From Thermoanaerobaculia bacterium (lineage in GTDB: Bacteria > Acidobacteriota > Thermoanaerobaculia > UBA5066), in NCBI GenBank assembly GCA_963816185.1, contig CAWFJJ010000024.1, forward strand, positions 1-64,000: a DNA stretch of 64,000 bases. Direction: 5' to 3'. Of the stretch, positions 6,512 through 64,000 are shown piece by piece. Made by a program: the position numbers and the translations under genes. The notes below the pieces were generated by a model, which was not told the origin of the DNA, ran no database searches, and saw only the letters and a list, made by a program, of their open reading frames with translations. The first letter of the stretch is position 1. Each line of letters begins with the position of its first letter.

Positions 6512-6559
6512 GCGGACCCCCTCAAAAAAGAAACGCCCCTTGAAGCTAATCGGACAACA

Positions 6560-6618
6560 GGGGTAGTGTACCCCAATTCTCAAGCTCGCACAACCCTCCC
6601 GTTTGGGGTGTGTACCCC
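6560..6618. promoter_or_regulatory. Two copies of a palindromic operator-like motif upstream of the TonB receptor
   Basis: GGGGTA-GTG-TACCCC (6560-6574) and GGGGTGTGTACCCC (6605-6618). Confidence 0.45.
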
Positions 6619-6702
6619 GCTGAGAGAGTCGTGTTTAGGCTATCCCGTTTACTTCCAATGCTTTATGGCGAGTGATATTAAGGAGAGCGCGGACACGAAC
6701 TG

Positions 6703-6757
6703 ATTTACCCGGTTTCGGGGTGAGCTTCTGGACCTGCCAGTTCAGGATCTCGACGAC
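6703..6757 (-). pseudogene. Remnant copy of the 3' end of the NHL-repeat gene
   Basis: 48/55 nt identical to 9932-9986; translates VVEILNWQVQKLTPKPGK versus VAEILNWRVQKLTLKPGK. Confidence 0.75.
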
Positions 6758-6764
6758 ATGATCT

Positions 6765-6796
6765 TCGTGACGGTGCGGTCAAATCGTGACGGTGCG
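6765..6796. repeat. 13-bp direct repeat TCGTGACGGTGCG x2
   Basis: Exact copies at 6765-6777 and 6784-6796. Confidence 0.8.
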
Positions 6797-6890
6797 TTCC
6801 AGATGATGGATTGGCGGGTATGGGTGGGGTCCTAGCCCGCGTCGCGAACCAGGACCCGCATGGTTCCGAATACTTGCTGCTGAATAACTC

Positions 6891-8069: not shown

Positions 8070-8297
8070 ATGCTGCTTTGGTCCTCCAGGTAAAAGTCAA
8101 ATGCACTTCTCGATTAGCATTTGGAGGACCATCTTCATTCTGGGCATGCCGCTAGGGAACACCCCGGAGAGAGCCGGTGACAAGCACGGCTTCCCTTCAT
8201 AGGCACTCGGCATGCACTTCTGCACGATGCAAATTCTTCGGCATGCCGTGCATCTTCGGCTAGGCCCGGGCCAACGCGACGCTCTATGAGCGATGTC

Positions 8298-9918
8298 TTA
8301 ATCCGGCACGTGGTTAATTTTCAACTGTACGGAGGAGGTTGAGCCTGGTTCAACCCGCACGGTGGCCGCATTGGGCATCAGGGCGCGCAGACGCGAAGGG
8401 TCCGCGATGGTGGGCGGATCGAACTTGTCCAGCGCGATCGCGTTGTACCCGCCTGGAGGAATCCCGGTCAGTTCGAAGGTCTTGCCGGAGGCTTGAACCG
8501 AGTAACCCACCCCCGTCAAATTCGGCGGGAACAAAACGATCGTGGCAGTATCCGCATCGTCAATGGTCCCGCGAACGGTACCAGCCGGCTTGAGGACAAT
8601 CTTTAGCGGCGGGGATGCGGGCGTCAGCTCGACGCTTTGCCCCGTGATGTCGGCGGATCCTTGCAATATCGAGTCAACGTAGTAGTTTCCAGTCTCGACG
8701 TCGGCCTGGATTCGACTGGTTCCCGGAAGCATCATCTCACCGAATCGCAATACGCCATCCGGGCCGATCGGGGCCCTCATCATGGCGGAGGCGGTATCCG
8801 ACATTACGGTCACAGACACAGAGACCCCGGGGGCGGGAGTAGAGCCATCGCTCACGACCACCGATACAGGGAGAGAGAGACTGACGGGTGTCACGAACTG
8901 TATCGTCAAGTTCGTCCGGGTCCTGGTGCTCCACTCGGAACGCGGCGCTGCCGAATCTGAGGAAATTTCGCTGCTGGATCTCGTCGCGAATCCAGTCGGA
9001 GGTGGCTTGAGCTGTCCACTCGCCCATCCGGACCGAAGGGAACTCGAACACCCCATCTGCCGCCGTGGTGACGGGCTGCTCGTCAGCTTGCCCTCCACCT
9101 GGACCATTCCTGAAGGAAAAGGTGAGCCCTTTGCCGGCGGACCCATTAATGGTGAGACCCGGTGTAGTTAGGAACCTTGGCATGGAGCTGGACTTTGGCT
9201 TTGGCGGCCGGTTTGCCATCGGGGTCCAGCACGATGCCTCGGACGCGGTGGACCTCGGCGGACTGCAATCGGATCTCATACCCGTCCAACTCCGCGCCTG
9301 GGTGAACCGCGATTGATTCCGCCTGGGACCGGTCGAGAGCGGACGGGTAGTAAGTGGGGACCACTTCCGTTCGGATTTCATCCTTCGCCGACACATGTTC
9401 CGCAACACGTTTTGTCAGGATGGGCCGTGCCAGCAGGGTGTATTGGCCGGGTGCGAGATTTTCGAAAACGAAGGAGCCGTCCGTACCGGTGTTGAGGCTG
9501 CTGCTGCGGACTAAGCTCCACCGCCGCTCGCGCCGGGTTTCCGTCCGTGCCGATGACGCGGCCGCGAAGAACGGCGGGCGGAATCAGCTCGAATCGGTAG
9601 CGAACCGGTTCGGCACTAGCAGCTGATGTGGCGCTTGGGTGGCTCCTTTAAGGGATCAAGTCGCGTCCGACTGGGGGTACTGTATCCGGTCTTCTGCACG
9701 GAAGAACTATAGTCGCCGTCAGTCAGTCCGGAGAGGTGAAACGTTCCCGCGTCGTCCGTGACGGCTTTGTAGCTGTTGGTGCCGCTGCTCCAGAACCACA
9801 CGGTAACGCCGCCGATGCCCGCGCCGGTGACTTTGTTGACCACCACGCCTTCGACGGTCGCAGTCTCCTGCGCGGCCGCTAAAGCGGCCAGAGCGGCGCA
9901 GAAGACTGCGAGTTTCAT
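8298..9918 (-). CDS. Carboxypeptidase-regulatory-like domain repeat protein, secreted (frameshifted)
   Basis: Signal peptide, ATVEGVVVN..TGAGI, PTYYPS and VRGIVLDPDGKP repeats, spread over ORFs 9616..9918, 9146..9394, 8737..9408 and 8298..9146. Confidence 0.8.
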
Positions 9919-9929
9919 GGAACGAGTAT

Positions 9930-11012
9930 TTATTTACCCGGCTTGAGGGTGAGTTTCTGGACGCGCCAGTTCAGGATCTCGGCGACGTACAGCTCGTTTT
10001 CCGAGGGGCACGCCATTTCGTGGATCCAGCCGAACTCCTTGGGCTGGCGGCCGGACCGGCCGAGCCATCCCAGCACCTTTCCGTCCAGCGACAGCTTGTA
10101 CACGCGGCCGGGGTAGGCGTCGGCGCTATAGAGATACTGCGTTCCAGGTCCGGGCGTGATGCAGATGGCCCAGGGCGCGCCGGCGCTCGCCACGTCCGCT
10201 TGGGTGCGGAGTGTTGCTGAACCAGGATTTGGCGTTGGGCGCGACCGGCACGTCGATGGTGATGATCTTCTTGAAATTGCCGTCGTGATCGTATACCTGG
10301 ATGCGGCGGTTGCCGCGGTCGGCGATATAGATGTTGCCTTGCGCGTCGGCGGCGATGCTGTGCGGCGTGTTGAACTCGCCCGGCGCCGGCATGGCGCGAT
10401 TCATCGGACCGGACCGCCCCAGGACTTGATCCAGTCGCCATTCTTATCGAGCTTGGCGACGCGCGAGTTGATGTAGCCGTCGCTGATGAAGATGTTGCCT
10501 TCCGGGTCCCAGGTGACGTCGGTGGGCTGGCGGAATCGGCCGTCCTGCGCGGGACGCGGCGGATTCGGATGCTCCAGGGGATTCGCGTTTTCGTCGGAGG
10601 CTTCGGACTTGCGGCCGAACACCATCATGACGCGTCCCTGCGGATTGAACTTGACGATCATGTCCGAGCCTTTGTCGACGGCCCAGAGATTATCCTGGCG
10701 GTCGACCCGCACGGTGTGCGCGAAGGACCAGGCGTAGAGGTTCTTGCCGATTTCGCGCAGGAACTTGCCGTTCTTATCGAACAGCAGGACCTGCGACGCG
10801 GTGGCTCCATAGGCGGGGCCGGTGGTGTTGCCGCGCGAGAAGACGTAAACCTGGCCCTGGGAGTTCACCGCGACGCCGGCGGTTTCGCCGAAATGCAGAT
10901 CGTCGGGCAGTTTGAAGAAATCCGGGTTCGAGTCAAACGGGATTTCGGGAACGCTCTGGCCGAATGCGAGCGCCCCGGCCGCGCAGAACAGGGCGAGGGT
11001 GGCAGTTTTCAT
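9930..11012 (-). CDS. NHL-repeat beta-propeller, peptidyl-alpha-hydroxyglycine alpha-amidating lyase-like (frameshifted)
   Basis: FAHTVRVD, FRQPTDVTWD..IFISDGYINSRV and FNTPHSIAAD..IYIADRGNRRIQV NHL repeats; signal peptide. Confidence 0.85.
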
Positions 11013-11047
11013 GAAGCAAATTGTAGCGCGTTATAGTGGGGAATAGA

Positions 11048-12695
11048 ATGGGAGCGCGGCAGTGGGCGGTCGTCGGTTTCTGGATTGCGCTGCCTGCATG
11101 GGCGCAGTTGCCGACCTGCAGCGTCCCAACCTGGAGCGCCTGCGATCTGGCGTTCGATCTTGAGGCCGGCGAAAATCCCGCCACGGTCCAATTGCATGGC
11201 GAGTTCCGGTCCGCCAAGCGGACATTGCTGATTCAGGCGTTCCGCGACGGCGATCGTAGATATGTCCTGCGGTTCGCGCCTACCGAGCCCGGCGAATGGG
11301 CCTATCGGCTGACCAGCAACCTGAAGCGTCTGGACGGGCAGTTGGGCAAGGCTACGGCCACCGCTTCGGACTCGCCGGGTTTTGTCAAAGTGGCGAACGT
11401 CCATCATTTTGCCTACGAAGGCACCAACAAACAGCATCTCTGGATGGCGACGGCGATCGACGATTTCGTCAAGATCCCACGCGCCGACTTCGACAGCGCT
11501 GTGACACAGAGGGTCGCTGAGAAGTTCACGCATCTGCGCGTGACCATCGCCAAGGATGCCGATCTGGACGAGGCGGCGGAACGGATTCGGGCGATCAACG
11601 CGCGGGGCGTGGTCGCGGACGTGGTTCTGGGCGGCATTCCTCCCGATAGGCAGGAGCGGGAACGATACATGACGGATATCGCGGCGACGTTTCTCCGCGT
11701 TCAACATTACCTGGATGGGCGCGCCGGCTTTCGAGAATATTCCCAACGGGAAAGCGATCCTGAAAGATGCGGGAACGCTGCTGGCGAAGCTCGATCCTTA
11801 TAATCATCCGCGAACGTCCATGGCGGAGGTGACCTCTTCGCCGCTCCTGGGCGATCAGTGGATGAGCGTTCTCAGTTACGGCACCGCCGATCCGAACGTG
11901 GGCGCGGTGGAGCACCAGTTTTACGCGATGCCGGCGGTGAACACCGGAATCCAGTCCGAGCGCGATTTGTGGAACGCCACCATGAACGGGCAGTATCCGG
12001 CCTCCGGATCGGGCAAGTATATGACGGCCTGGTTCGATTTCATGTCGGGAAATCGCTACTGGGAGCTGGAGCCTTATTTCGACGTGGATGGCGGGCGGGC
12101 GGTGGCGCTGGAAGACGTGGAGTATATCGTTTACGTCGAGAAGCCCGGGCCGGTGGAGCTGACGGTCGAGGATCACGGCTACGACGTGGTCTGGATCAAT
12201 CCGGAGACGGGCGAGCGCATCAAGGCGAAGAATTACAAAGGCAAACATTTCACCGGCGAGCCTCCCGACAAATCGCATGACTGGGTGCTGCGCGTTTCGC
12301 GCGAAGGGACCAAGGAGGGGATGCTGAGGTCCTACAAGTTCGACTCGCGGGAGGTTCCTATTCGGCTTCAGGAGATCGAGACGAATCCAGCAGAAGATGC
12401 CGTTCGAGGTGGCGACGCCCGACGGAGACATTTCGATGGCGTTGCCGCCGCCGTTATTCCTTGAAGATCACGCGCCCGACGCGCGCTACGCGGGAACTTC
12501 TGGTCGAATGGACGGCTGAGGTGGTGCTGGATGGCGAAGGTTTTCGCGTGGTGGGAACCGGCAGCAAAGGGATGATGCGTATCCCGAGCGTCGATTGTGC
12601 ACAAACTGCCCGGCACGTTGAGCCTGCGGGTGTCGATCCTGAACGCGAATGGCAAGGCGTACGCGATCGATAAAGTGTATCGGCTGGGACCGTGA
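11048..12695 (+). CDS. DUF5060/DUF4038 (apiosidase-like) domain protein, secreted (frameshifted)
   Basis: LRFAPTEPGEWAYR, HHFAYEG, DPYNHPRT and WINPETGE...DWVL motifs. Confidence 0.7.
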
Positions 12696-12758
12696 GCGAG
12701 ACGAACTGTTGCTTGGCGATCGATACCACCGAGCGAGATTCAGCGTAAGCTGGAGACT

Positions 12759-13345
12759 GTGCGCTTCTGCATCGATACGACGGCGCCGCAGTCGAGGCCG
12801 CGTGCTGGAAGAAGTCGCGCTGCATTCGCCCGACGGCTTCGCGCACGTCATGTTTCCCGAGATCGAGGCGCTGCTCGCGCGGCACAATCTCAAGATCACC
12901 GACATCGAAGGCTTTGCCGCCGCCGCGGGACCCGGATCGTTTACCGGCGTTCGCGTGGGCCTGACGGCCGCGAAAGGTCTGGCGGAAGCGACCGGCCGCA
13001 AAGTGGTCGCGGTTTCGAACTTGCAAGCCATCGCGTCCTTCGGCACGCGCGCGCTGCGCGGCTCCGGTGATCGACGCGCGGCGCGGCGACATATTCGGCG
13101 CGGTCTACGATGCGGATCTGCGGCTGGTGGCCCCCGAGGTCGTGATGAAATTCGACGACTGGCTGCGAACGTTGCCTGAGGGACGTGGAAGTGATCGACC
13201 GACGCTCCGAAACTGCTCGCCGGAGCCATCGCGCAGAATCGCCGCAGCGCGGTTCGAAGCCGGACTGGCGCAAGATCCCGCCGAGATCGACGCGAACTAC
13301 GTTCGCCGCTCCGATGCGGAATTGATGTGGCGAGATAAGGTATAA
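12759..13345 (+). CDS. tsaB: tRNA threonylcarbamoyladenosine biosynthesis protein TsaB (frameshifted)
   Basis: IDT, GPGSFTGVRVG..AKGL, IDARRG and YVR motifs. Confidence 0.9.
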
Positions 13346-44634: not shown

Positions 44635-45373
44635 TTATTGAACTGGGTATCCGCGCACCAACTTCAGCTCCCGATCCCAGCGAGTCTTGAAGAAGAAGTT
44701 CTTGGCGAGATCGATGAAGTGATCGGCGCTATAGCCAACCAGGTCCGCGGTGGGCGCGTCGTAGGACCAGAAGATCAGCAAGGGCTTGCCGATGATGTTC
44801 TCGCGCGGCACGAAGCCCCAGTAGCGGCTGTCGAGCGAATTATCGCGATTGTCGCCCATGGCGAAGTAGCTATCCGGCGGGACCACCACCTCGCCGTTCT
44901 GCACGTGCTCGGCGAGCATCTGCTTGGCGCGATCGTAGACCGGTCCGTCCGGCTCGGTCGGGAAGTTGTCGCGATACGGATCCGGGTTGGGGAAAATATG
45001 CTGGGCGTATGGTTCGTTGAGTAGCGGTTTGCCGTTCAGGTAAACCACTTTGTTCACCAAATGGATGTGATCGCCCGGGAACGCCCATCACGCGCTTCAC
45101 GTAGTTCTGAGAGATGTCCATCGGATAGCGGAACACGATGACGTCGCCGCGCTTCGGCTCCGTGTAAGGCAGCAGGTAGCGCGAGAACGATCCCGGCGGC
45201 GCATAGGACAGCTTGTCCACCAAAAGATGATCGCCGACCATCACGGTGGTATCCATGGACGGTGTCGGCACGATGAAAGCCTGCACCAGGGTGGTGGTGC
45301 CGAATAGCAGGATCAGGATGTTCAGGCTCCACTCATGGATGAAGTTCCGCGTGGATTCGGCAAATTGGCTCAT
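44635..45373 (-). CDS. lepB: Signal peptidase I (second copy, frameshifted)
   Basis: PTPSM (Ser), YVKR (Lys) and GDNRDNSLDSR motifs. Confidence 0.93.
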
Positions 45374-45397
45374 GTGGGGCTTTATTTGATATGGATC

Positions 45398-46279
45398 CTA
45401 CTTAATCGGATAGCCGTGGATCAGCATGAAGCTTCTGCGCCAGCGGGTCTTGCTAAAAAAATTCGTGGCAAGATCCCGAATGTGGTCGAGGCTGATGGAA
45501 GAGGTGTTGAGATCTTCGGTGGGGGCGTCGAAGGACCAGTAAATCACCAGCGGCTTGCCGATGATGTTCTCGCGCGGAACGAATCCCCAGTAGCGGCTAT
45601 CGAGCGAGGAATCGCGGTTATCGCCCATCGCGAAGTAGGAATTGGGCGGAACCACGACTTCGCCGTTGACCACGTGGTTCAGAAGCATGTCCGAGGCGCG
45701 GCGGTCGACGGAAACGTTGGGCTCGCCGGGGAAATTGTCGCGGTAAGAATCGATGTAATCGGACTTGTGATAGGTGTACGGCTCATCCAGGCGCACGCCA
45801 TTCAGGTACACCTGCTTGTTGATCACGCGGATGCGGTCGCCGGGCACGCCGATGCAGCGCTTGACGAAGGTCTGATTGATCTCGACCGGGTAGCGGAAGA
45901 CGATGATATCGCCGCGCTTCACATCGGTGTAGGGCAGCAGATACTTGCTCACCGGGCCGTAGGGAGCGAAGGCCAGCTTATCCACCAGCAGGTGGTCGCC
46001 GATCAGGAGCGTGTCTTCCATGGAACCGGTCGGAATCACGTAGGCCTGTACCAGGGTCGTGGTCAGGAACAGGAGCAGAAGGATGGTGATGGTCCATTCG
46101 GCGATAGTGCTGCGGGGGCGCTCATGATGGTGGTCTTCGGGTTCGACGATCGGTGTACCTTCCGTCGACGGCAGGCCGTTCAGCGGTGGCTCCGTCACTG
46201 GGACGGTGTAAGACGGGACCTCGGAAACTGTACCCGAACTCGAGGGCAGGGAAGGGTCCGTGGGATCTTGGGGGCTCAC
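45398..46279 (-). CDS. lepB: Signal peptidase I (first copy)
   Basis: PTGSM, FVKR and GDNRDSSLDSR motifs; GTG start with AGAGG RBS. Confidence 0.93.
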   Translation of the reverse strand: MSPQDPTDPSLPSSSGTVSEVPSYTVPVTEPPLNGLPSTEGTPIVEPEDHHHERPRSTIAEWTITILLLLFLTTTLVQAYVIPTGSMEDTLLIGDHLLVDKLAFAPYGPVSKYLLPYTDVKRGDIIVFRYPVEINQTFVKRCIGVPGDRIRVINKQVYLNGVRLDEPYTYHKSDYIDSYRDNFPGEPNVSVDRRASDMLLNHVVNGEVVVPPNSYFAMGDNRDSSLDSRYWGFVPRENIIGKPLVIYWSFDAPTEDLNTSSISLDHIRDLATNFFSKTRWRRSFMLIHGYPIK

Positions 46280-46662
46280 TACCTCTATCTTAGCGTGGCT
46301 TGCCCCAATGTGATAAACGCAGCGACAAAACGAACCCAAGAACCCCTTGAAACCAAAGGGTCGAGCATTTGGGAGGTGGATGTTTGGGCGAACGCTTTCA
46401 TAATCGGGGCCGTGGAGCGGGCTCCAGCGGGCACCATTGTGTCTCACCGCGCGTTCATCTCGCGCCCGTTGGGCGCAGCCAATTTAAGCTTCTCGGTACT
46501 AATCAAACGCCCGCTCGCACTTCCGCAACTGACCGTGCCCGACTTGGTAACGCTATTAGAATCTGAAGAGCGGGAATTACCAAAGGCGGCCGTGGTGGCG
46601 ATATAATCAACGGTGCTCGGGAACCCTAAATGGAAATTCCGCTGAGTACTGCTTGAGGCCAC

Positions 46663-47801
46663 ATGAACAGTCACATCTTGCGAGTTCTGCTGTTGTCGCC
46701 CGTCTTCTCCCTCCTGACGATGGCCCAGTCCCTCGAAGGAGTCTGGCAAGGGAACGTCACGATGCCGAATGCACCCGAAAGCCGCGCCGCGATCAGAGTC
46801 ACGCGCACCGACGGCTCTCTCGCGGGCGTCATGTTTCTGTTGGATACCAAGGTACAAATGCCTGTCGCCAACATCTCTCTGCGAGGCACCACCGCGAAGA
46901 TGTCTATCGCGGGCATGACCTATGAAGGCACGCTGAGCGCTGACGGCAACTCCATTGCCGGCAAGCTGACCATGGGAGCCAACTCCATGCCTATGCCATT
47001 AAAGCGCGCCACCTGGAGACAGCCTGGGAACTGCCGAAGCCGCCCGCGCTCCTCGCGAAAGATGTGCCGCTGGAATTCGTAGTCTCCACCATCAAACCCG
47101 CTCCCGACACCAACATCCCTTCCGGAACTTATGGCATCGGGGCTAGCAGCTACCAGGCCCACGGAGCCTCGCTGATCTACCTGCTGACCTTCGGCTTCAA
47201 CATGCACCCCAGACAATTCGTCGGTCTTCCTGGATGGGCGACCTCCGATCGCTACGAAGTCAACGCAAAGCTTCCTGAAGGAGGCAGGCCTACCGATGCC
47301 CAATTGCGCATCATGGTCCAGAACCTGGTGAAGGACCGCTTCGGGATCACCTTCCACATCGAAAAACGCGAACTCCCGGCCTACACGATTAATGTTGGCA
47401 AGGGCGGTTTGGCGGGCATCAAGATGACGAGGAGCGAATCTCAGGGGAGCAATGGCGGCGGCACCTTCCAGGGCTCCGTTCCCGGCACCGGCGTCATGAC
47501 CATGGGCAACGCCACCATGACCGATATGGCGAGTCTAATGCAACGCGTCATGCTCGACCGTCCCGTGGTCGACCAAAGCGGACTCACTGGCCGCTACAAC
47601 ATCGCTCTCAAATGGGCTCCGGACGACACGCAGTTCATCCAAATGAACCTCAGACTCGCCCCGCCTCCGGGAGCCGATCCCGATCCTCTACCCAACCTCG
47701 TGACCGCCTTCCAGGAGCAACTCGGCATGAAACTGGAGTCAACAAAAGCGCCTGTCGATGTCATCGTCATCGACAAAGTTTCGCGCCCGTCGGAGAACTG
47801 A
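46663..47801 (+). CDS. TIGR03435-like acidobacterial family protein (frameshifted)
   Basis: F.VSTIKP, GLPGW..DRYEV.AK, DRPVVDQSGL.GRY, AFQEQLGMKL and VIDKVSRPSEN motifs. Confidence 0.9.
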
Positions 47802-47864
47802 CTAACAGACCGTCTTGGGTGAAGCCGTCTGCTCTTGTGATAGACGGTAAAGATATGTTATCGA

Positions 47865-48735
47865 CTACCAAGCCGCCGGACTTGGTCGAGACCGCTTAGG
47901 ACGCCCAATCTCATCTGGCGGTGAGGCTTCGCAGATAGGTACCGATAAACGCTTCTGTGAAGCGCCTGCGCCCGTGACCGATAGTTGTAGGAGGGGACGA
48001 GCTACCTTGCGATCAGGGCTCCATCCGCCAGACTGGGTTGCGATCCAGACAGGGTAGCGCGTTGGCTGTCTGAGCACCGCCGTTTCTTCCGCTACGAAAC
48101 TGGCCGGTGGAAATGGCGATCCGTACTGCACTTCCGGCAGGTTCATGAGCTTTCCGATCATCGATTGATAGAGACCCAGCCCCACCTGTTGTTCCGGAGG
48201 CAGGTACCAGCGGTGCAGTGAGTCCGCCATTTTCTTAAATTCGGCGATCAGTTGGTCACGCGGTATGTTGCGTCGGCCGGCCTCAGATAGCGTTTCGAGT
48301 GTTGTATCCACTGCCAGCAGCATGTTGCTCCGGCGCAGCACCAAGCCGGCGAGCAAGGCCGGATCGCCAGTTGTGGTGTCATCGGCGAAAACTCCCGCAG
48401 TGAGGACGGGTTCCGCGAAAAAACGAGTGCCGGGATTGCTCAAGCCGGGATTCATGCCCATGGACATGACCAGCCGTTCCTCACCCGGCAGCAGCGGTTT
48501 CGCGGCCGGCTCAATCAACGGATCGGAATACCTCACCAACGGCGCACTACTAGCGTTGGCGACTTTGAGGTACCCGCTTCGCAGCGACCACATAGGCCAC
48601 CAAACTGATCGCGGAATTGTTGCGAATTTTGACGTCGTCCAAGCCACTCGATCTATGGATCAGTGTGGTGGAGATCTGCGCATCCAATGAGAAGGCGCAT
48701 GCGAGCAGAGGTGCTAGCGAGATGACGGTTTTCAT
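47865..48735 (-). CDS. Hypothetical secreted protein (frameshifted)
   Basis: Signal peptide ORF 48550..48735 continuing into 47865..48647. Confidence 0.55.
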
Positions 48736-48985
48736 TCCGACTCTTCCTTGAGCGGCAGAATACCGTCATGATACCTCTCATAACGGAAAGAGGTCGGAAG
48801 AAAGTTCCTGGAGGTTGGGGATTTTTGCGCGGGGGCCAGGCGATCCTCAGCATAAGTGACCGCCCATGGGCACTAGCCAGATGTGCCTAGGGCTATTGGA
48901 CATAGCGTCGGATAATGGCCGTTTGTTGACAACGTTAGGACTTTGGAAGTCCCCGTGCCTTAGGAACTCCGAGGAGAACTGACAT

Positions 48986-49682
48986 ATGCGGAACACGCTC
49001 TCAGTCATTTTTGCAATTGCCGGTACTCTGAGCACCGCCGCCTTCGCGGCGGACAGGGAGATTAAGGTTACTGACCGGCTGGACGCTTCGGCCGACACAC
49101 TGTCCGATATGATGAAGGCCAGCGATAAGGGTATTCCCCAAGATTTGCTCGACAAGGCTAAATGCGTCGTGGTTATCCCCGGAATGAAAAAGGCCGGATT
49201 CATCTTCGGCGCGAAGTATGGCCAGGGATTTGCGGCCTGCCGCCGCAGCGGTGGCACCGGCTGGAGCGCTCCCGCCGCGATGCGCGTGGAAGGTGGAAGT
49301 GTGGGGTTTCAGATCGGCCTGTCGGAGACAGACGTTGTATTACTCGTTATGAATGATGGCGGTATGAAGCACCTTCTTTCCGACAAGTTTACGATCGGCG
49401 GAGACGCCACTGCAGCGGCAGGTCCGATTGGCCGCGCTGCCAGCGCCCAGACGGACGCGATGCTGAACGCGGAAATGCTGTCGTATTCCCGTGCGCGCGG
49501 ACTCTTTGCCGGCATCTCGCTGGAAGGCGCGACGCTTCGTCCGGATGAAGACACCAACCGGGAACTATACGGTCGCCAGGCAACGAATCGCGAAATTCTG
49601 ACTGGCGACTTCAAAACCCCCGCAAGCGCGGCAGACGTTTGAACGCCGGTTGAATCGGGAATCGCCCGTACGCGACAAGTAA
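48986..49682 (+). CDS. Lipid-binding SYLF (Ysc84) domain protein
   Basis: GWSAP, GGSVGFQIG, AAGPIGR and YSRARGLFAGISLEG motifs; likely frameshift before the true stop near 49682. Confidence 0.9.
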
Positions 49683-57789: not shown

Positions 57790-58629
57790 ATGGCCGTTTC
57801 TTCCGTCGCCGCCGCCGGTCTCGCCTTCGCGATCGCTCTTGCGGACGGCGGGAAGTCCGTGCCGATCGACCGATTCACGCTGAAGGTGCCCGGCGTGAAG
57901 GGCGCTCTCGTCCTTTCGTTAGAAGGCGTCGACCTCATCGGCGGCGCCGTCGTCGCGCCCGTGCGCCTCGCGAACGAGACGGACTTCGACGTCCTTTCGC
58001 CGAGGATCGACCTCGTTTCCGTCACCGAGACGCGGCGCGAAGGCGGACGCGACGTGGCGCGCGCGCTCGATGCCGCGGCGCCTTTGCCGCCCGCCTGGGA
58101 CCTGCTTCGCAAGAGGACGGACGCCGCGGGGCAGCTCTTTCGGGCCTCTCCGGTCGGGTTCTCTCCGGACACCTCGCTCGTCGTGATCCTCGGGGCCGTG
58201 AGCGGCGCCCTCGCAGTGGGATCGTTCGAGGTCGAGGGTGCGAGAAACCCCGCCCGGCTCGACATCGATTCCGGCTCGCTCTTCGTCACGGACGCGTCGG
58301 GACGCATCGTCAGGTGCGCGCTCGACGGGCGCGGCGCCGCGGAAGTGAAGCAGCGGCCCCCGCAGAGGAGTGACCCGGCGGGAGGACCGTGCGCGCGAGC
58401 GCGCGTCCAGGCCCTCGTGTGCCGCACGGCGCCCGACGGCGGCGCCTGGGCGATCGAGGGGCGCGAAGTGACGCAGCTCGATGCCGAGGGAGGGAGAGTG
58501 CGTTCATTCCCCCCCGGGGGCGAAGGCCCGCCGGTCGCGCTGGCGCTCGGCCCGGACGGAAGGCTTTACGTGGCGACGGCGGGCGAAGGTGGAAGCAGCG
58601 GGTCCGTGCGGATCTTCAGGCCCTTCTGA
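57790..58629 (+). CDS. Hypothetical secreted protein with partial NHL/propeller-like C-terminus
   Basis: 3' part of ORF 55798..58629; signal-like N-terminus; PVALALGPDGRLYVA. Confidence 0.65.
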   Translation: MAVSSVAAAGLAFAIALADGGKSVPIDRFTLKVPGVKGALVLSLEGVDLIGGAVVAPVRLANETDFDVLSPRIDLVSVTETRREGGRDVARALDAAAPLPPAWDLLRKRTDAAGQLFRASPVGFSPDTSLVVILGAVSGALAVGSFEVEGARNPARLDIDSGSLFVTDASGRIVRCALDGRGAAEVKQRPPQRSDPAGGPCARARVQALVCRTAPDGGAWAIEGREVTQLDAEGGRVRSFPPGGEGPPVALALGPDGRLYVATAGEGGSSGSVRIFRPF

Positions 58630-58632
58630 CGG

Positions 58633-59040
58633 CTACTTTTTCAGGAGCAGATTGAAGTCCGCACGATAGAACGTGCGGCCCTGTCCGTCGCGCCGCGTCG
58701 GAATGACGAAGAGCGGGAAGCGGCCCATCTTCTCCTGCTCGACGGTATACGTGCCCTCGGCGAGGCGCTCGCCTCCGGGCGCGACGAACGTGAGCGAGAA
58801 CTGGTGCGTTCCGTTCGAAGAAGGTTTCTCGTCGTACGCCTCGAGGACGACGTCGATCGAGCCCCGTGAATCGGCCGTCTGGACGTGAAACGTCCGGCCG
58901 ACGTATTGCGCGAAGTTGCGGACCGGCGTGATCGAGCCCATCGCGCCCACGGCCTTCGTGGCCGCCGACAGCGGACGGACCGCCGCGCCGACGACACCGG
59001 TCACGACCGTGAAGAGGAATTTCTTGCGGGTGATTTTCAT
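58633..59040 (-). CDS. DUF6916-like protein with Tat-like leader
   Basis: MKITRKKFLF leader; F..YVG..F, FSLTF, EGTY, LFVIP and YRADFN motifs. Confidence 0.8.
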   Translation of the reverse strand: MKITRKKFLFTVVTGVVGAAVRPLSAATKAVGAMGSITPVRNFAQYVGRTFHVQTADSRGSIDVVLEAYDEKPSSNGTHQFSLTFVAPGGERLAEGTYTVEQEKMGRFPLFVIPTRRDGQGRTFYRADFNLLLKK

Positions 59041-59079
59041 CGAAGACCTCCGGGGACGGTTTGTGCCACGATACGGCGC

Positions 59080-59376
59080 ATGCTCGAGAGCTTGACGTTC
59101 GGAGATTTCTCTGGAAGGGTCGGAGAGGGGTTTCGCCTCGAGGGACCCGCCGTCATCGTCGAGCTGACGCTTGTCGAGGTCACGGACCTCGCGCGGCGCG
59201 AAAAACCGGGTCCGCGGCGGTCGCCGTTTTCGCTCGTCTTCCACGGCCCGTTCAGCCCCGTAATGCCCCAGCGCACATACGCGCTCGAGCATGCCTCGCT
59301 CGGGCGCCTCGACATCTTCCTCGTACCGATCGGGCCCGACGCCGACGGCATGCGGTACGAGGCGGTCTTCAACTGA
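59080..59376 (+). CDS. DUF6916-like protein (no leader)
   Basis: F..RVGE.F, PFSLVFHGP, PQRTY.LEH..LG..IFLVPIG and YEAVFN motifs. Confidence 0.88.
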   Translation: MLESLTFGDFSGRVGEGFRLEGPAVIVELTLVEVTDLARREKPGPRRSPFSLVFHGPFSPVMPQRTYALEHASLGRLDIFLVPIGPDADGMRYEAVFN

Positions 59377-59854
59377 CTCTCGCCGCGGACACCGCGGGAC
59401 GCCGCTCCATCAGCAGATAGACGCCGTGCTCCTCGGCGGGCGCGAACCCGAGACGCTCGTAGAGACTTCGCGCGGGGTTCGACATCTCCACGTGGATCGT
59501 CAGGGTCACTTCGCGCCCCTTCGCTTCCGCGATGAGCTCGGCCAGGAGCCGCGTTCCGATTCCCGTCCCCCGGAACCGAGGCAGGAGAGCGATGTCCATG
59601 AGCCGGATCTCTCTCGGCCTGCGGTGGACATAGAGCCGCCCCACGGGCACCCCATCCACCTCGATCACGTCGTACGTCGCGCCTTCGTAGTGGGCGCGGT
59701 AATGCGCGTCCTGGGCGTCGAACTGCATCTTCACGAACGCGGCCTTCTGCTCGTCCGTCCAGGGCACCGGCGCCAGCTCCTCCGCGCGCGTCGACGCGTA
59801 CACGGAGAGGAGGAACTCCCGGTCGTCGGGGCGGACGGGGCGGAGGGTCACCAT
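59369..59854 (-). CDS. GNAT-family N-acyltransferase
   Basis: FRGTGIGT acetyl-CoA motif, NPA.SLYERLGF, N-terminal YASTR.EE..QFDAQ..HY; GAGGAG RBS. Confidence 0.92.
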   Translation of the reverse strand: MVTLRPVRPDDREFLLSVYASTRAEELAPVPWTDEQKAAFVKMQFDAQDAHYRAHYEGATYDVIEVDGVPVGRLYVHRRPREIRLMDIALLPRFRGTGIGTRLLAELIAEAKGREVTLTIHVEMSNPARSLYERLGFAPAEEHGVYLLMERRPAVSAARVS

Positions 59855-59868
59855 TCGTCGGGTGCTCC

Positions 59869-60384
59869 TCACGTCCGCGGCGGGTAGACGCCCTGCAGGG
59901 CGATGCAGAAGTTGAGCGTGAGGTACGGCTGCATGTTGTTGTGCGGCTGGTCGGCGCCGGCCGGTGCGATCGCCTGCGAGCTGAGCTGCGTCACGGCGCC
60001 CGGCACGGCGTAGGCCCCGATTCCGATGCCCTTGGCCAGCAACTCGTTCCCGGCATTCGTGTCCACCCCATCTGCCTTGGAAGCCTGGAGCCCGTGCGAA
60101 TGCGAAGGGATCTCCGACTCGAGCAGGGTAACGGTCTCGCTCCCGCCGGTCTCGCCGAGATCGTGGAGCGAGAGGCCGGGACCCTGTCCCGGGTGCATCG
60201 GCGCGTTGCCTTGCATGTTCGGGAGCGCGAAGTTGCTCCTCCCGTCCCCGCCGTACGTCGTCCCAAGCAGGGAGAACAGCGCCGTGTTCTGCGAGAGAGG
60301 CAGGATCTGGCCGTCGCAGAACGCCCAGCCCGCTGGGGCGAAGTTGAACGGGAAGATGCGGATTTCGGCGACGAATGGGTCCAT
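59869..60384 (-). CDS. Phage tail-collar domain protein (microcystin-dependent-protein-like) 3
   Basis: FVAEIR, GWAFCDGQ.LP..QNTALFSLLGTTYGGDG..F.LP, HSH and HNNMQP motifs. Confidence 0.92.
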   Translation of the reverse strand: MDPFVAEIRIFPFNFAPAGWAFCDGQILPLSQNTALFSLLGTTYGGDGRSNFALPNMQGNAPMHPGQGPGLSLHDLGETGGSETVTLLESEIPSHSHGLQASKADGVDTNAGNELLAKGIGIGAYAVPGAVTQLSSQAIAPAGADQPHNNMQPYLTLNFCIALQGVYPPRT

Positions 60385-60393
60385 GGCGTCTCC

Positions 60394-60903
60394 TCAGGTC
60401 TGTGACGGGAAGATGCCGAAGAGAGAAATGATGAAGTCGACGCAGAGGTACGGCTGGAAGTTCGTGTGAGGCTGGCTTCCTCCCGTGCTGCCGACGGCGG
60501 ACGGGCTCAGCGGGGTCAGAGGCGCATCGGTGCCGTACGGGGTGATCGCGGCGTTCGGAGACTTCGCGGGGAGCTGGCCCTGGGGGGCGGTGCCCGTCGC
60601 GGGATTGTTCGACGCGAGAAACGCGTGTGAGTGCGCCGGAATCTGGCTGACCGTCAGGGTGATCTCCTCCACGCCGCCCGTCTCCGCGAGCGTAAAGCCG
60701 TTCCCGAAGTGGAGCGGGACACGACCGCGCAGGTCGGGCAGCGCGAACGTGGACTGCCCGTCGCCGCCGTACGTCGTGCCGATCAGGTTGAAGAGCGTTT
60801 CGTACTCCGAGATCGGCAGGAGCTGGCCTTCGCAGAACATCCAGCCCGCGGGCGCGAAGTTGCCCGCGAACATCCGGATCTCACCGACGTAAGGCTGGGC
60901 CAT
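60394..60903 (-). CDS. Phage tail-collar domain protein 2
   Basis: YVGEIR, GWMFCEGQ, LIGTTYGGDG..FALPDLRGR, HSH and HTNFQP motifs. Confidence 0.92.
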   Translation of the reverse strand: MAQPYVGEIRMFAGNFAPAGWMFCEGQLLPISEYETLFNLIGTTYGGDGQSTFALPDLRGRVPLHFGNGFTLAETGGVEEITLTVSQIPAHSHAFLASNNPATGTAPQGQLPAKSPNAAITPYGTDAPLTPLSPSAVGSTGGSQPHTNFQPYLCVDFIISLFGIFPSQT

Positions 60904-60913
60904 CGCGTGCCTC

Positions 60914-61417
60914 CTAGGTCTGGCTCGGGAAGATGCCCTGGAGGGCGATCGAGAAGTTCAGGACGAGGAACGGCTGCATGTTGAGGTGCGCCTGCGAGCC
61001 GCCCACGTTGGCGAGGGCGTTGGGGGCCATGGCCACGGGGTTGCCGGAGCCGTAGAGCTGGGCCCCGGCGGACTGCGCGAGCATGACGTTCGACGCCGGG
61101 ACGTTCGTCGACGCGACCGCGCTGACCGCATTGGCGACGTGCGCATGCGTGGGGATCTCCGAAATCGAGAGCGTGTGGGCCTGCTCGCCGCCTTGCTCTC
61201 CGAGGGTGTGGCCGTTCCCCATGTGGATCGGGGCGCGCCCCTGCAGATTGGGAAGCCCGAAGTTCACGCGCCCGTCTCCTCCGTAGGTCGTGCCCAGCAG
61301 CGAGAACAGCGCCTGGTTCTGATTGATCGGCAGGAGCTGGCCGTCGCAGGTCGCCCAGCCCTTCGGTGGGAAGCCGAAGCTCATGATCCGGATCTCGGCG
61401 AGGAAGGGTTCCGCCAT
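60914..61417 (-). CDS. Phage tail-collar domain protein 1
   Basis: FLAEIR, GWATCDGQ, LLGTTYGGDG, HAH and HLNMQP motifs. Confidence 0.92.
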   Translation of the reverse strand: MAEPFLAEIRIMSFGFPPKGWATCDGQLLPINQNQALFSLLGTTYGGDGRVNFGLPNLQGRAPIHMGNGHTLGEQGGEQAHTLSISEIPTHAHVANAVSAVASTNVPASNVMLAQSAGAQLYGSGNPVAMAPNALANVGGSQAHLNMQPFLVLNFSIALQGIFPSQT

Positions 61418-61434
61418 CGCTGTTTCTCCTCGTG

Positions 61435-64000
61435 TTAGAAGCCGCCGGGTTCGACGCAGGTCGAGAACCCGCTCGTGGCGGAGATGAGGGTCGTGCCGCC
61501 GACGCCGAAGTTGCCGGGCGCGCTCCCCGGGTTCTGGCTGTTCACGTAGTTCTCGACGTCCGGCGTCGACGTCGACCCGCCGGGCAGGCCGACGATTCCG
61601 AACGCGTTGATCGCGGAATTCGTCCCCTGCTTGCGGAGGCCGATGCCGGAGGCGATGAAGCCGCCTCCGCTGTCACCCGCCGTCGTGTTGCCCGTGATCT
61701 CGAGGCATACGGTCTCGTTGGCGCTGGAAGCGCTGCCGGAAGAGACGCGAATGCCGAACGTCGTCCCGCTTCCCGAGGTCGGGGCCGCGACGGTGTTCGT
61801 CCGGATCCTCACGTGCGCCTGGCCGGTCGCGCCGATCGTGTTGACGAGGATACCGTTCCCGTCCGTCTGGCTGATGTTGTTCGCGCCGCCGGCCGTGCCG
61901 TCGCCGATGCTCAGGTTCAGGACGGGCGTGTCGCTCGACGAGAACGTGCTCGTCGTGCCGCCGCCGATCCCGGCGCTGCTGAAGATGTTGTGCGCGACGA
62001 TCGTGTTTCCGGCGATCGTGCCGGTGTACGTCGTGAGGCCGTTCGATCCGAAGCCGATCCCGAGTCCCTTCACGTTCGTGATCGAGTTGTTCGTGATGAC
62101 GAAGAACCCGGTGCCGCGGCCGTTGAGCGCCGTGTTGATCCCCTGCGTCCCCATCTGGTTGGCCGCGCTCTGTCCCGAGATCACGTTGTTCGTGATCGCG
62201 ATCGCGTTCGTCGAGAGGTCGGACCCGTACGTCCCCGCGGGCGCGAGGGTGCTCGTCGCGTTTCCGCCGAGGAACAGGATCCCCGCGTCGCTCGGGAAGT
62301 TCGTGATCGTGTTCCCGTTGATCGTAGCCTTCGAGTAGCTCGCGACGGTGGACGCCGAGCCGAAGCCCACGAGCCGGATCGCCGATCCCTTCGACGCCGT
62401 CGTGAGCGTGCTGCTCGTGAGCGTGTTGTTCGAGATGTTCGTGTTGCTGATCGTGCCGTCGAACTGGAAGACGTCCACGCCGTGGTAGTAGGCGTTCGTC
62501 AGCGTGCTGCCCGTGATCGTCAGCGTTCCCGTGAGGTTCTTCTCGTTGCCGATCGTGGGCGAGTAGGCGCCGGCGTTGAAGGCGATGTTCGAGTCTCCGG
62601 TTCCGCTGGCGGTACCGGAGTTGTTGATCGTGCCGTTGACGAAGCTGAACGTCTGGACGTTATTGGATCCCTTCACGCCGCTGTGCCCCGTGTTCTGGAT
62701 GCTCATCGAGGTGAGCGAGACGCTCTGGGCGTTCGACAGGAGGACACCGTCTCCGGTCACGCTCTGGATCGTGCCGCCCGTCCCCGCGCCCCCCGTCCCC
62801 GTGACGGTGAAGCTGCCCGTCGAGTTCTGCAGGACGATGCCGTTGGCGCCCCCGTTCGCGGACACGGCCTGGAAGGTGAACGCGCCTCCGGCGGCGTTCA
62901 GCGACACCGCCGTGCCGGTCGTCGTCGTCACCGTGACGCCGTTCTGCACGGTCGCGCCCGTGATCGCGCCCGAGTTCGTCACGCCCGTGCTCGAGCCCGC
63001 GCTGACGTCGAGGGAGCTGACCGTGAGCGTGTTCGCCGCGAGCGTGAGAGTCGAATTGAGCGTGGGCTTGCCGCCCGCGCCGATCGTGAGGGGCCCGAGC
63101 GTGAACGTCGTGCCCTGGCCCCAGAGCGTCAGGCCGGCCTTGTTCAGCGAGGCGCCCGCGTAGTTGGACGAGCCCGTGTGCAGGAAGATCGTCTGGTTCG
63201 CAGAGGCGTTCGTCACCGCCTGCGCGACCGTCGCGAGAGGCTCGTGCGACCGCCCGCGCGAGGCCGAGTCGGAGCCGCCCGAGTTGTTCACGTACCAGAC
63301 CATGCCGGTCAAGGTGACGTTCAAGGGCGCGGTCGCGCTCGCGGGCGTCCCGGTCCCGCCGCTGTCGCTTGAGACCGTATAGGTGCACGTCGAGGACGTC
63401 GCGCCCGCGTTCGGCGTGTAGACGAAGCGGCCGAGTCCGTCGAAGGTCGAGATGGCCGCGCCGGCGGTGCAACCCGCGGCGGTCACGGTGACGCTGCCGG
63501 CCGGCTGGGCCGACGTGAGGAGCCCCGACACCGTCGCGACGGCGGGAGTCGTCGGCGCGCCTGTGACGCCGGTGACGTAGAGCTGCGTGTTCCCGACGCC
63601 CGAGTAGGTCTGCGTCACGATCGCGGGTGCGACCGAGAGCGTGTAGGTGCCGCTCGTTCCGAAGCAGCCGTTTGCGTCGGTCGCCTTCACCGTGATCGTG
63701 AACGTGCCGGTCTGGGTCGGCGTGCCGGTGAGGACACCGGCGGTCGAAAGCGAGACACCCGTCGGGAGGGAGCCCGTCGTGAGGGTGAACGTCGCGGGCG
63801 TGTGCGTCCCGACGCCCGACTGCGTAAACGTGAAATTGCCGGCTGGGGCGAGCGCCGTGTTGTACGTCGCGATCGTCGAGGTCGGGTTCGAGACCGTGAT
63901 CGTCTGGCAGGAGATCACGAGCGTGTAGGTCGCGCCCGTGCCCGTGCAGCCGTTCGCGTCCGTCACCGTGACGACGATCGGGAACGTGCCGGACGAAGAG
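61435..64000 (-). CDS. Large surface protein with putative-Ig repeats and beta-helix region (5' end outside window)
   Basis: GSLPTGVSLSTAGVLTGTPT..GTFTITV.ATDANGC repeats, then WYVNN..G...P and Gly/Asn/Thr-rich beta-helix-like repeats; frame open to the window edge. Confidence 0.85.
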   Translation of the reverse strand, partial: SSSGTFPIVVTVTDANGCTGTGATYTLVISCQTITVSNPTSTIATYNTALAPAGNFTFTQSGVGTHTPATFTLTTGSLPTGVSLSTAGVLTGTPTQTGTFTITVKATDANGCFGTSGTYTLSVAPAIVTQTYSGVGNTQLYVTGVTGAPTTPAVATVSGLLTSAQPAGSVTVTAAGCTAGAAISTFDGLGRFVYTPNAGATSSTCTYTVSSDSGGTGTPASATAPLNVTLTGMVWYVNNSGGSDSASRGRSHEPLATVAQAVTNASANQTIFLHTGSSNYAGASLNKAGLTLWGQGTTFTLGPLTIGAGGKPTLNSTLTLAANTLTVSSLDVSAGSSTGVTNSGAITGATVQNGVTVTTTTGTAVSLNAAGGAFTFQAVSANGGANGIVLQNSTGSFTVTGTGGAGTGGTIQSVTGDGVLLSNAQSVSLTSMSIQNTGHSGVKGSNNVQTFSFVNGTINNSGTASGTGDSNIAFNAGAYSPTIGNEKNLTGTLTITGSTLTNAYYHGVDVFQFDGTISNTNISNNTLTSSTLTTASKGSAIRLVGFGSASTVASYSKATINGNTITNFPSDAGILFLGGNATSTLAPAGTYGSDLSTNAIAITNNVISGQSAANQMGTQGINTALNGRGTGFFVITNNSITNVKGLGIGFGSNGLTTYTGTIAGNTIVAHNIFSSAGIGGGTTSTFSSSDTPVLNLSIGDGTAGGANNISQTDGNGILVNTIGATGQAHVRIRTNTVAAPTSGSGTTFGIRVSSGSASSANETVCLEITGNTTAGDSGGGFIASGIGLRKQGTNSAINAFGIVGLPGGSTSTPDVENYVNSQNPGSAPGNFGVGGTTLISATSGFSTCVEPGGF

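Follow-up and report, generated by a model that had tools for sequence, protein, structure and literature searches.

Phage tail-fibre tip proteins are homotrimers, and in gp12, which makes up the short tail fibre of phage T4, the three-fold axis carries a metal site lined by an HxH pair. Parts of this kind are also found in bacteria apart from phages. The mosaic adhesive trimer (MAT) fibres of Bdellovibrio are described as phage-fibre-like trimeric adhesins of a bacterium without a phage (PMC10769870), and a PilV-Collar fusion in the shufflon of a conjugative pilus is described as reusing Collar outside phage for recipient-cell recognition (PMC9881135). Two further papers report COG4675 proteins in soil metaproteomes (PMC5579227) and positive selection among tail-collar paralogues in Solibacter (PMC3174227). 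In Acaryochloris marina, the cluster AM1_3684-3690 combines three genes named 'phage tail collar' with one for a putative acetyltransferase and with others for conserved hypothetical proteins, and the tables of the genes most induced in low far-red as compared with high white light list five of its genes in strain MU13 and six in MBIC11017 (PMC11633204); tables 2 and 4 of the same paper show that this condition also induces a phage-sheath-like cluster, AM1_0267-0278, and the baseplate gene AM1_6406 (PMC11633204), which could, from these rows, be coincidental co-regulation or a functional link. Many genomes from soil, from fresh water and of cyanobacteria have annotated collar triads, or proteins called 'microcystin-dependent protein', for which the papers searched give no function. 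Here we describe a cassette at one end of a 64,000-nucleotide stretch (the window) of contig CAWFJJ010000024.1 from a Thermoanaerobaculia bacterium (assembly GCA_963816185.1), in which three collar genes stand together with a GNAT gene, two DUF6916 genes and a gene for a large secreted protein. Our literature searches found no paper on DUF6916, on a tail collar with PEP-CTERM, or treating this cassette as a unit. Taken as a whole, we give about an even chance to the reading that it is a self-contained, non-phage cassette in which the collars form a 1:1:1 knob, DUF6916 guides modifying enzymes, and the knob acts with the giant protein as an extracytoplasmic binding device.

The three collar genes follow one another on the minus strand as Collar1 (60914..61417; 167 residues), Collar2 (60394..60903; 169 residues) and Collar3 (59869..60384; 171 residues), positions here and below being window coordinates (G000:C24:1-64000) unless marked C24. 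All three match the Collar family PF07484 (92.2, 104.5 and 94.9 bits, respectively, with a Pfam cut-off of 24 bits), all lack a signal peptide, and each carries an HxH pair, at H91/H93 in Collar1 and in Collar2 and at H95/H97 in Collar3. They are the only Collar matches in the whole genome and are 49–56% identical to one another, which bears out the claim of a first-pass annotation of the window that the diverged tail-collar paralogues number exactly three. Pairwise alignment shows a five-residue insert, GPGLS, in Collar3 that is absent from Collar1 and Collar2, and Collar3 scores 24.9 bits against Gp10_C, under the cut-off of 27. PHROG tail-protein families match all three collars and NCBIfam yielded no match to them, while the sole PDB relatives of Collar2 are phage tail-fibre tips (8kec, 1ocy, 1pdi, 5iv5 and 9nxk), with the HxH pair aligned in 8kec.

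A profile search with DUF6916-A confirmed 192 places in one-genome-per-species contigs, and all locus counts out of 80 refer to the best 80 of these DUF6916-anchored places. Across the loci, the collars are nearly constant in length (165–181 residues), and they are 47–85% identical to their counterparts in other phyla. In 49-row alignments, made up of the window and the 48 loci in which all five genes were cleanly called, the mean column identity of the three collar alignments is 64, 66 and 69%, and the HxH pair is invariant in each of them. The collar tree was built from 168 sequences, taken from the window and from the 55 of the 80 loci in which the full-length collars number exactly three and lie on one strand within 2.2 kb, the other 25 being excluded. 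Its three clades follow operon position: the p1 clade contains 52 p1 and 4 p2 rows (Shimodaira-Hasegawa-like approximate likelihood ratio test, SH-aLRT, 98), the p2 clade contains 46 p2 and 4 p1 rows (SH-aLRT 99), and collars 1, 2 and 3 of the window fall in p1, p2 and p3, respectively. Operon position changes label only 5 times on the tree, as compared with a mean of 80.1 when labels are shuffled, and none of 200 shuffles gave so low a value. Since the tree clades are thus the operon positions, the triplication is older than the spread over phyla, and no lineage has given up any one of the three collars. The order 1-2-3 is found in 54 of the 80 loci and 2-1-3 in 4.

Two further observations on collar genes should be mentioned. 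One locus, L036 (a Pseudomonadota record of a metagenome-assembled genome), holds at 2897-13262 three collar triads with about ten collar open reading frames (ORFs) on both strands, whereas GNAT and DUF6916-A are each present there once, so that whole triads appear to have been multiplied. At G008:C4:74040-75189, L012:11050-12806 and L079:7757-9425, collar genes are fragmented across frames, and these split genes could be pseudogenes or assembly errors.

How the three collars are put together can be judged from their longer relatives, of which we found 2,563; all counts of fused collars refer to the best 120 of these. Three full collar units are joined in one chain in 60 of the 120, and when the units are assigned by clade profiles, the order is 2-1-3 in 31 of the 60 and 1-2-3 in 2. 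A further 17 are two-unit chains that join unlike clades, including 1-2, 2-1 and 2-3. Exactly three [PAS]xHxH motifs are found in 92 of the 120, and the median linker between fused units is only 3 residues. In their source annotations, fused and single relatives alike are named 'microcystin-dependent protein' or 'tail fiber protein'. Because natural single chains hold three collar units, each with an HxH motif, we consider it highly probable, as judged from sequence, that Collar1, Collar2 and Collar3 form one 1:1:1 heterotrimer. The first-pass annotation had also proposed a heterotrimer, and with three ancient, position-linked clades and the single-chain three-unit fusions this is now the most likely arrangement. 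Complex prediction of Collar1, Collar2 and Collar3 with DUF6916-A as partner gave 0.00, 0.63 and 0.46 in three runs, and 0.53 in a control with chain 3 replaced; we base no conclusion on these scores. As to gene order, four loci from Terriglobia and Limnocylindrales records (L023, L031, L050 and L074) share a layout of GNAT, DUF6916-A, a second GNAT, an opposite-strand DUF6916 with a twin-arginine translocation (Tat) signal, and collars in the order 2-1-3, which is also the order in most single-chain fusions.

The collars recur together with the same partners. Among 41 related genomes, the same 16 hold three Collar and two DUF6916 genes, always adjacent, and these include 13 of the 24 congeners. 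An even draw of 201 genomes from the phylum, all at least 90% complete, contains Collar in 30 and DUF6916 in 21, with a tandem triad and DUF6916 on one contig in 19; in one genome, G051, both triad and DUF6916 lie on a truncated contig. The best 80 loci span records of Acidobacteriota, Gemmatimonadota, Chloroflexota, Actinomycetota, Planctomycetota, Pseudomonadota and Rokubacteria. When only the 50 loci that have 4 kb or more of sequence on each side are considered (about seven phyla, tallied at the ORF level), at least three collars are found in 46, GNAT in 46 and both in 43, and the recurrence of the gene set in diverse bacteria, which the first-pass annotation had put forward, is therefore supported by this neighbourhood survey. 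The seven exceptions are L012 and L079, where the collars are fragmented, and L020, L040, L055, L066 and L063. DUF6916-A is convergent with the collars in 40 and co-directional with them in 25 of the 65 loci that could be scored for orientation, and the linkage is kept in spite of such differences in the order and direction of the genes. Apart from antisense shadow ORFs, no further gene cluster is common to more than 12 loci. Between GNAT and Collar3, a protein of about 265 residues is encoded in 11 of the 80 loci (L019:10851-11636, L082:10792-11589, L084:13823-14629 and 8 more); it has no Pfam, NCBIfam or PHROG match and is an optional extra member of the cassette.

The cassette stands among housekeeping genes. 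According to Pfam, the flanking genes encode a DeaD helicase, DAHP synthase, a T2SSE (PilB-like) ATPase, ABC/GntR proteins, 2-oxoacid:ferredoxin oxidoreductase and a CoA ligase. Neither Phage_sheath_1 nor Baseplate_J has a match in the whole genome, and the sole gp25-like match belongs to a canonical type VI secretion system (T6SS) on contig C25. This cluster, at G000:C25:462001-482000 (L085), comprises TssA (ImpA_N), VipA, VipB, TssE (gp25), TssF, TssG, ClpV and TssM (IcmF), and C25:450146-450991 holds another VipB copy, which is more distant. VipB does not go together with the cassette: among the 41 relatives, 9 have both, 7 the cassette only, 4 VipB only and 21 neither. We also surveyed 149 of 192 picked neighbouring proteins of the other loci, leaving out those of the close relatives L005-L010, eight proteins longer than 800 residues and five more. 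No Pfam family is found in more than 4 of the 149, and none of the 25 commonest families is a phage family; the cassette therefore brings neither export machinery nor phage genes along.

Searches of viral and defence collections agree with this. DUF6916-A has no match in 50,697 phage records, the 28 pattern matches to DUF6916 in IMG/VR all went unconfirmed, PHROGs contains no DUF6916 family, and the PADLOC defence models gave 0 families for all seven cassette proteins. Collar2 matches 794 phage proteins, all of them less than 60% identical and about 40% at best, as compared with 47–84% identity to cellular orthologues of other phyla. The cassette is thus not part of any phage, extracellular contractile injection system (eCIS) or T6SS locus, and the view of the first-pass annotation that no phage or eCIS owns these genes stands, given the housekeeping flanks, the lack of a sheath or baseplate match in the genome and the clean junctions in congeners that lack the cassette.

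These junctions also define the extent of the unit. In the cassette-less congeners G003, G004 and G013, C24:57788, the end of deaD, abuts C24:66938. In G011, 58631-66598 is missing and a 22-residue remnant of the N-terminus of the large protein (E 9e-7) persists, so the cassette was lost there by deletion. The genes from DUF6916-B through the large protein are accordingly one presence/absence unit, and no repeats of 8 bp or more were found at its boundaries. Between deaD and DUF6916-B lies an ORF at 57790-58629 on the plus strand (about 280 residues), whose N-terminus is signal-like and which weakly matches a strictosidine-synthase-like family (SSL_N); since it is kept in the cassette-less G011 (as the ORF at 57.8–58.6 kb) and absent in G003, G004 and G013, it is outside the cassette. 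Further off, at 45000-49000, the G+C content is lower (0.57–0.59) than around the cassette (0.66–0.70), and the GC skew shifts.

Within the unit, the gene for the large protein (61435..64000 in the window, full gene G000:C24:61435-66756), the three collar genes, the GNAT gene (59369..59872) and DUF6916-B (58633..59040) all lie on the minus strand, and DUF6916-A (59080..59376) lies on the plus strand. The gaps from the large gene through Collar1 and Collar2 to Collar3 are 17, 10 and 9 bp. The GNAT gene as called shares 4 bp with Collar3; with ATG 59854 as its start there would instead be a gap of 14 bp between them. This ATG is the likelier start (161 residues), as it has a GGAG site upstream and gives a length that matches the orthologues. 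Ribosome sites of the form GAGGAG or AGGAGG precede all three collar genes (GAGGAG for Collar1) and DUF6916-B, and no obvious Shine-Dalgarno site precedes DUF6916-A. DUF6916-A converges on GNAT, their 3' ends sharing 8 bp, and diverges from DUF6916-B across a gap of 39 bp. The first-pass annotation had described a compact co-directional unit with gaps of 9–17 bp and GGAG sites, closed by a pair of DUF6916 genes. This is correct for the run from the large gene to GNAT and for DUF6916-B and does not extend to DUF6916-A; likewise, the two closing genes are both DUF6916, but they are on opposite strands and are of different types, one cytoplasmic and one signal-bearing.

The large protein, of about 1,773 residues (the C-terminal 854 of which are encoded inside the window), was followed by its ORF and by reading of its N-terminus. 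It is built of a signal peptide, an N-domain of about 150 residues, about ten He_PIG Ig domains (1 of the Ig stretches lies within the window and 9 beyond it) and a C-terminal region of about 600 residues, which has no Pfam match. Neither NCBIfam nor PHROGs has a family that matched the protein. An AlphaFold2 (AF2) model (predicted local distance difference test, pLDDT, 82.3) is all-beta with short strands at a regular period, the top Foldseek matches of the model cover the Ig part only, and among Atlas look-alikes Beta_helix PF13229 is found in 52–82% of members. On this model, the C-terminal region may have a right-handed beta-helix-like fold. The same region is conserved in large proteins next to the collars elsewhere among the loci, where C765 and C848 do not vary. 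A homologous large protein, mostly over the C-terminal 570–880 residues, is found in 46 of the 80 loci, so the large repeat protein, counted as a member of the set in the first-pass annotation, is indeed a frequent one. An ORF of at least 800 residues lies directly upstream of Collar1 in 30 of the 55 clean triads. By eye, signal peptides can be read in about 19 of 23 complete large neighbours.

The GNAT protein matches Acetyltransf_1 with 58.3 bits (cut-off 20.7). Against TIGR01575 (rimI) it scores 47.8 bits, below the equivalog cut-off of 86.4, and it should be called RimI-like only, as it fails the RimI equivalog model. The distinctive QFxAQxxHY extension pointed out in the first-pass annotation is real: it reads MQFDAQDAHY in the window and QFxAQxxxY across 49 orthologues, with Q50 and Q54 invariant and F51, A53 and Y58 at 90% or more. 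The N-termini of the collars (M-A-E/Q-P-F/Y...) are nearly invariant, and that the collars are the substrate of GNAT can be put forward from sequence tentatively at most.

DUF6916-A (98 residues, no signal peptide) matches PF21880 with 112 bits and DUF6916-B (135 residues, with an N-terminal signal) with 68.7 bits, where the cut-off is 27; NCBIfam has no match to DUF6916. The AF2 model of DUF6916-A (pLDDT 90.3) is a small all-beta fold with no significant match in the PDB (best E 0.45) or BFVD (best E 0.022, template-modelling score 0.46), and Atlas matches are DUF6916 clusters only. A likeness to small phage beta-barrels was considered and dropped as evidence, as the matches are too weak. The 63 longer DUF6916 proteins are more informative as to the use of the domain: 32 carry a S-adenosylmethionine (SAM)-methyltransferase, 13 a GNAT, 10 an alpha/beta-hydrolase and 1 a trypsin-like peptidase, and 7 have DUF6916 alone. 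Such fusions also occur inside the cassette, as a methyltransferase-DUF6916 protein between Collar3 and GNAT in L079 and L048 and a hydrolase-DUF6916 protein adjoining GNAT in L052, and DUF6916 is the C-terminal domain in all three. Because the domain is shared by different modifying enzymes and is free-standing beside GNAT here, we slightly favour for it the role of a targeting or substrate-binding adaptor.

A second DUF6916 copy is found in 26 of the 80 loci, and in 10 of the 21 DUF6916-positive genomes of the phylum sample. The consensus motif of Tat signals is S/T-R-R-x-F-L-K, and a canonical twin-arginine motif (such as SRRHLF, ARRNFLK or KRRQFV), with a hydrophobic stretch and then an Ala-rich site after it, is present in the second copy of 16 loci. 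DUF6916-B of the window starts with MKITRKKFLF..., after which come hydrophobic residues and an A-x-A site. Read by eye against the consensus, its motif, T-R-K-K-F-L, has a single Arg, and in the clade of the window (L005, L007-L012) the motif is worn to T-R-[K/A/S]-x-F-L, with one Arg. TatC is encoded in this genome.

As for the site of action, a hydrophobic N-terminal extension is found in 50 of the best 120 fused relatives and a PEP-CTERM-like tail in 36 by pattern, with PF07589 precomputed on 13; none of the cassette proteins of the window has a PEP-CTERM end. The fused relatives that bear signals or PEP-CTERM ends suggest an extracytoplasmic, surface location. Since it is these relatives that carry such ends, and since the large protein has a signal peptide and two invariant Cys residues, an action of the knob outside the cytoplasm seems the better supposition. 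The first-pass annotation had further supposed a domesticated adhesion or surface-display apparatus, the tip of which might be acylated or chaperoned and be mounted on, or co-exported with, the large protein. Co-export would need a route, because a signal peptide is present on the large protein and absent from the collars, GNAT and DUF6916-A.

The following mechanism would account for these results. The core product would be one knob, with one copy each of Collar1, Collar2 and Collar3, built like the tip of T4 gp12, and each collar subunit would give its HxH pair, probably to a single metal site on the pseudo-threefold axis. The knob would be made in the cytoplasm, where the dedicated RimI-like GNAT would act on it or on a partner, other lineages adding a methyltransferase or an alpha/beta-hydrolase, and DUF6916 would be the small beta domain that brings the modifying enzymes to their target. 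The knob would then work outside the cytoplasm as a binding device, for recognition or adhesion, with the co-transcribed Ig/beta-helix giant.

Several points weigh against this mechanism and need to be considered. The large protein is not universal, as nearly half of the clean triads have no ORF of at least 800 residues directly upstream of Collar1. The conservation of the collars across phyla (64–69%) is unlike that of fast-evolving receptor-binding proteins and could fit an enzyme-like or intracellular role equally well. The collars, GNAT and DUF6916-A have no signal peptide, and neither within the cassette nor beside it are there genes for an export system. Some three-unit fusions, for example forms of 511–514 residues, have no N-terminal extension, so that a cytoplasmic role keeps its place. 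GNAT falls under the RimI equivalog cut-off, and the adaptor role of DUF6916 is drawn from domain architecture, DUF6916-A having no significant fold match. The linkage itself has exceptions, as DUF6916 stands alone in L063 and GNAT without collars in L020, genome G079 has DUF6916 without collars, G224 has the triad without DUF6916, and several sampled genomes carry one or two collars of other architecture. Finally, related genomes and loci are not independent, and the counts given here overstate the number of independent observations.

Among the alternatives, one concerns the export route. The folded, metal-loaded collar heterotrimer might cross the inner membrane bound to DUF6916-B, as a hitch-hiker on the Tat system, while DUF6916-A holds the knob for GNAT. 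Tat exports folded oligomers in which one subunit alone bears the signal, and the elements for such a route are at hand, namely a second DUF6916 copy in 26 loci, 16 of them with a canonical motif, the T-R-K-K-F-L of DUF6916-B in the window, TatC in the genome and collars without signals of their own. The second copy is, however, present in only those 26 of 80 loci and in 10 of 21 genomes of the phylum, and the route can therefore not be general, save where divergent copies escaped the search; in the very clade of the window (L005, L007-L012) the decayed motif keeps only one Arg, and binding between DUF6916 and the collars is itself a supposition. We thus regard this route as rather unlikely. 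Extended further, DUF6916 might be a universal handle, the cytoplasmic form of which would show the metal-centred heterotrimer to acetyltransferase, methyltransferase and esterase, while the Tat form would export the knob to the surface, beside the giant protein. To this extension we would give only a slim chance; if true, a surface organelle derived from phage would be matured and exported by a new route in at least 7 bacterial phyla.

Alternatively, the heterotrimer may never leave the cytoplasm and would be an internal scaffold or would bind a metal or a ligand, the enzymes linked to DUF6916 would modify it, and the large protein would be no more than co-regulated. This would explain why the collars, GNAT and DUF6916-A have no signal peptide, why some single-chain fusions have no N-terminal extension, why the fusion partners of DUF6916 are enzymes of cytoplasmic type, and why conservation across phyla is so extreme, which is atypical of surface receptor-binding proteins. 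Such a complex is nonetheless unlikely in our view, given the signal-like N-termini (50) and PEP-CTERM-like ends (36) among the best 120 fused relatives, the tight coupling of the collar genes, with gaps of 9–17 bp, to the gene of a signal-bearing protein, and the presence of a signal-bearing DUF6916 paralogue.

The 1:1:1 knob should also be weighed against three separate homotrimers, for example with different binding specificities. All solved collar relatives are phage tail-fibre proteins, which as a class assemble from like subunits, and the three triads of L036 could be read as a library of tips. Single chains of three units are, however, common (60 of the best 120, with three HxH motifs in 92), two-unit fusions join unlike rather than like clades (1-2, 2-1, 2-3), and the three clades are kept 1:1:1 and in fixed order in 54 of the 80 loci; L036, too, multiplies whole triads. 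Separate homotrimers are thus improbable.

Still less probable is a fibre-only, bacteriocin-like weapon, in which the knob, with or without the large protein, would be released to bind and harm competitors and DUF6916, read from the other strand, would be an immunity or masking protein. A convergent accessory gene, as DUF6916-A is in 40 of the 65 loci scorable for orientation, resembles some immunity-gene layouts, both cytoplasmic and exported-type DUF6916 forms exist, and the cassette is patchy in the genus (13 of 24 congeners). Pfam, NCBIfam, PADLOC and PHROGs scans, however, found no toxin domain in any cassette protein, DUF6916 is fused to modifying enzymes and not to toxins, the collars are conserved and not diversifying, and there are no lysis or release genes in the cassette or its flanks. 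That the collars serve in trans as the tail fibres of a T6SS, eCIS, tailocin or other contractile system encoded elsewhere in the genome is hardly credible, in spite of the T6SS on contig C25, the VipB in 9 of 16 cassette-bearing relatives and the Acaryochloris collar cluster that the table rows show co-induced with a phage-sheath-like cluster, since Phage_sheath_1 and Baseplate_J are unmatched in the genome, T6SSs are not known to have fibres, VipB is missing from 7 relatives that have the cassette (four of these genomes being 99, 99, 96 and 95% complete) and 4 have VipB only, and no contractile-system family recurs among the 149 flanking proteins.

The preferred reading is therefore still that of a binding knob with a 1:1:1 composition and its own enzymes. 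What the present analysis adds is the three-unit single chains, the fusions that bear PEP-CTERM ends or signals, the fusions of DUF6916 with enzymes and the Tat-type second copy of DUF6916. The cassette becomes a defined system: its seven genes, namely those of the large protein, the three collars, GNAT, DUF6916-A and DUF6916-B, come and go together as a block of about 8 kb, and it offers a structural prediction (a 1:1:1 heterotrimer equal to natural single-chain trimers), an adaptor role for DUF6916 and a candidate export route. If confirmed, it would be a phage receptor-binding module fixed in cellular genomes under strong purifying selection, and a natural case of conversion between heterotrimer and single chain.

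As compared with T4 gp12 and the other phage tips, the collars of the cassette are alike in having a Collar domain followed by a small head, in the aligned HxH pair and in the probable three-fold unit. They differ in having neither fibre shaft nor virion, in being three distinct subunits of 165–181 residues or one three-unit chain, in their high conservation across phyla and in being encoded with GNAT and DUF6916. By sequence, the collars would thus be placed with gp12-type fibre tips, yet they do not come out as a phage component. The annotation class COG4675, or 'microcystin-dependent protein' (MdpB), covers collar relatives without giving a function, and the label is silent on triad, heterotrimer, GNAT and DUF6916. 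The Acaryochloris cluster resembles the cassette in having three adjacent collar genes and an acetyltransferase; it is known from table rows alone, on which the paper does not comment. In MAT fibres, the proteins are long homotrimers that vary at the tip, whereas the subunits of the cassette are short, of three kinds and accompanied by modifying enzymes. PilV-Collar is a single Collar on a pilin, varied by DNA inversion, in contrast to the fixed, conserved triad of the cassette. With MAT fibres and PilV-Collar as precedents, the cassette has the appearance of a domesticated phage receptor-binding module.

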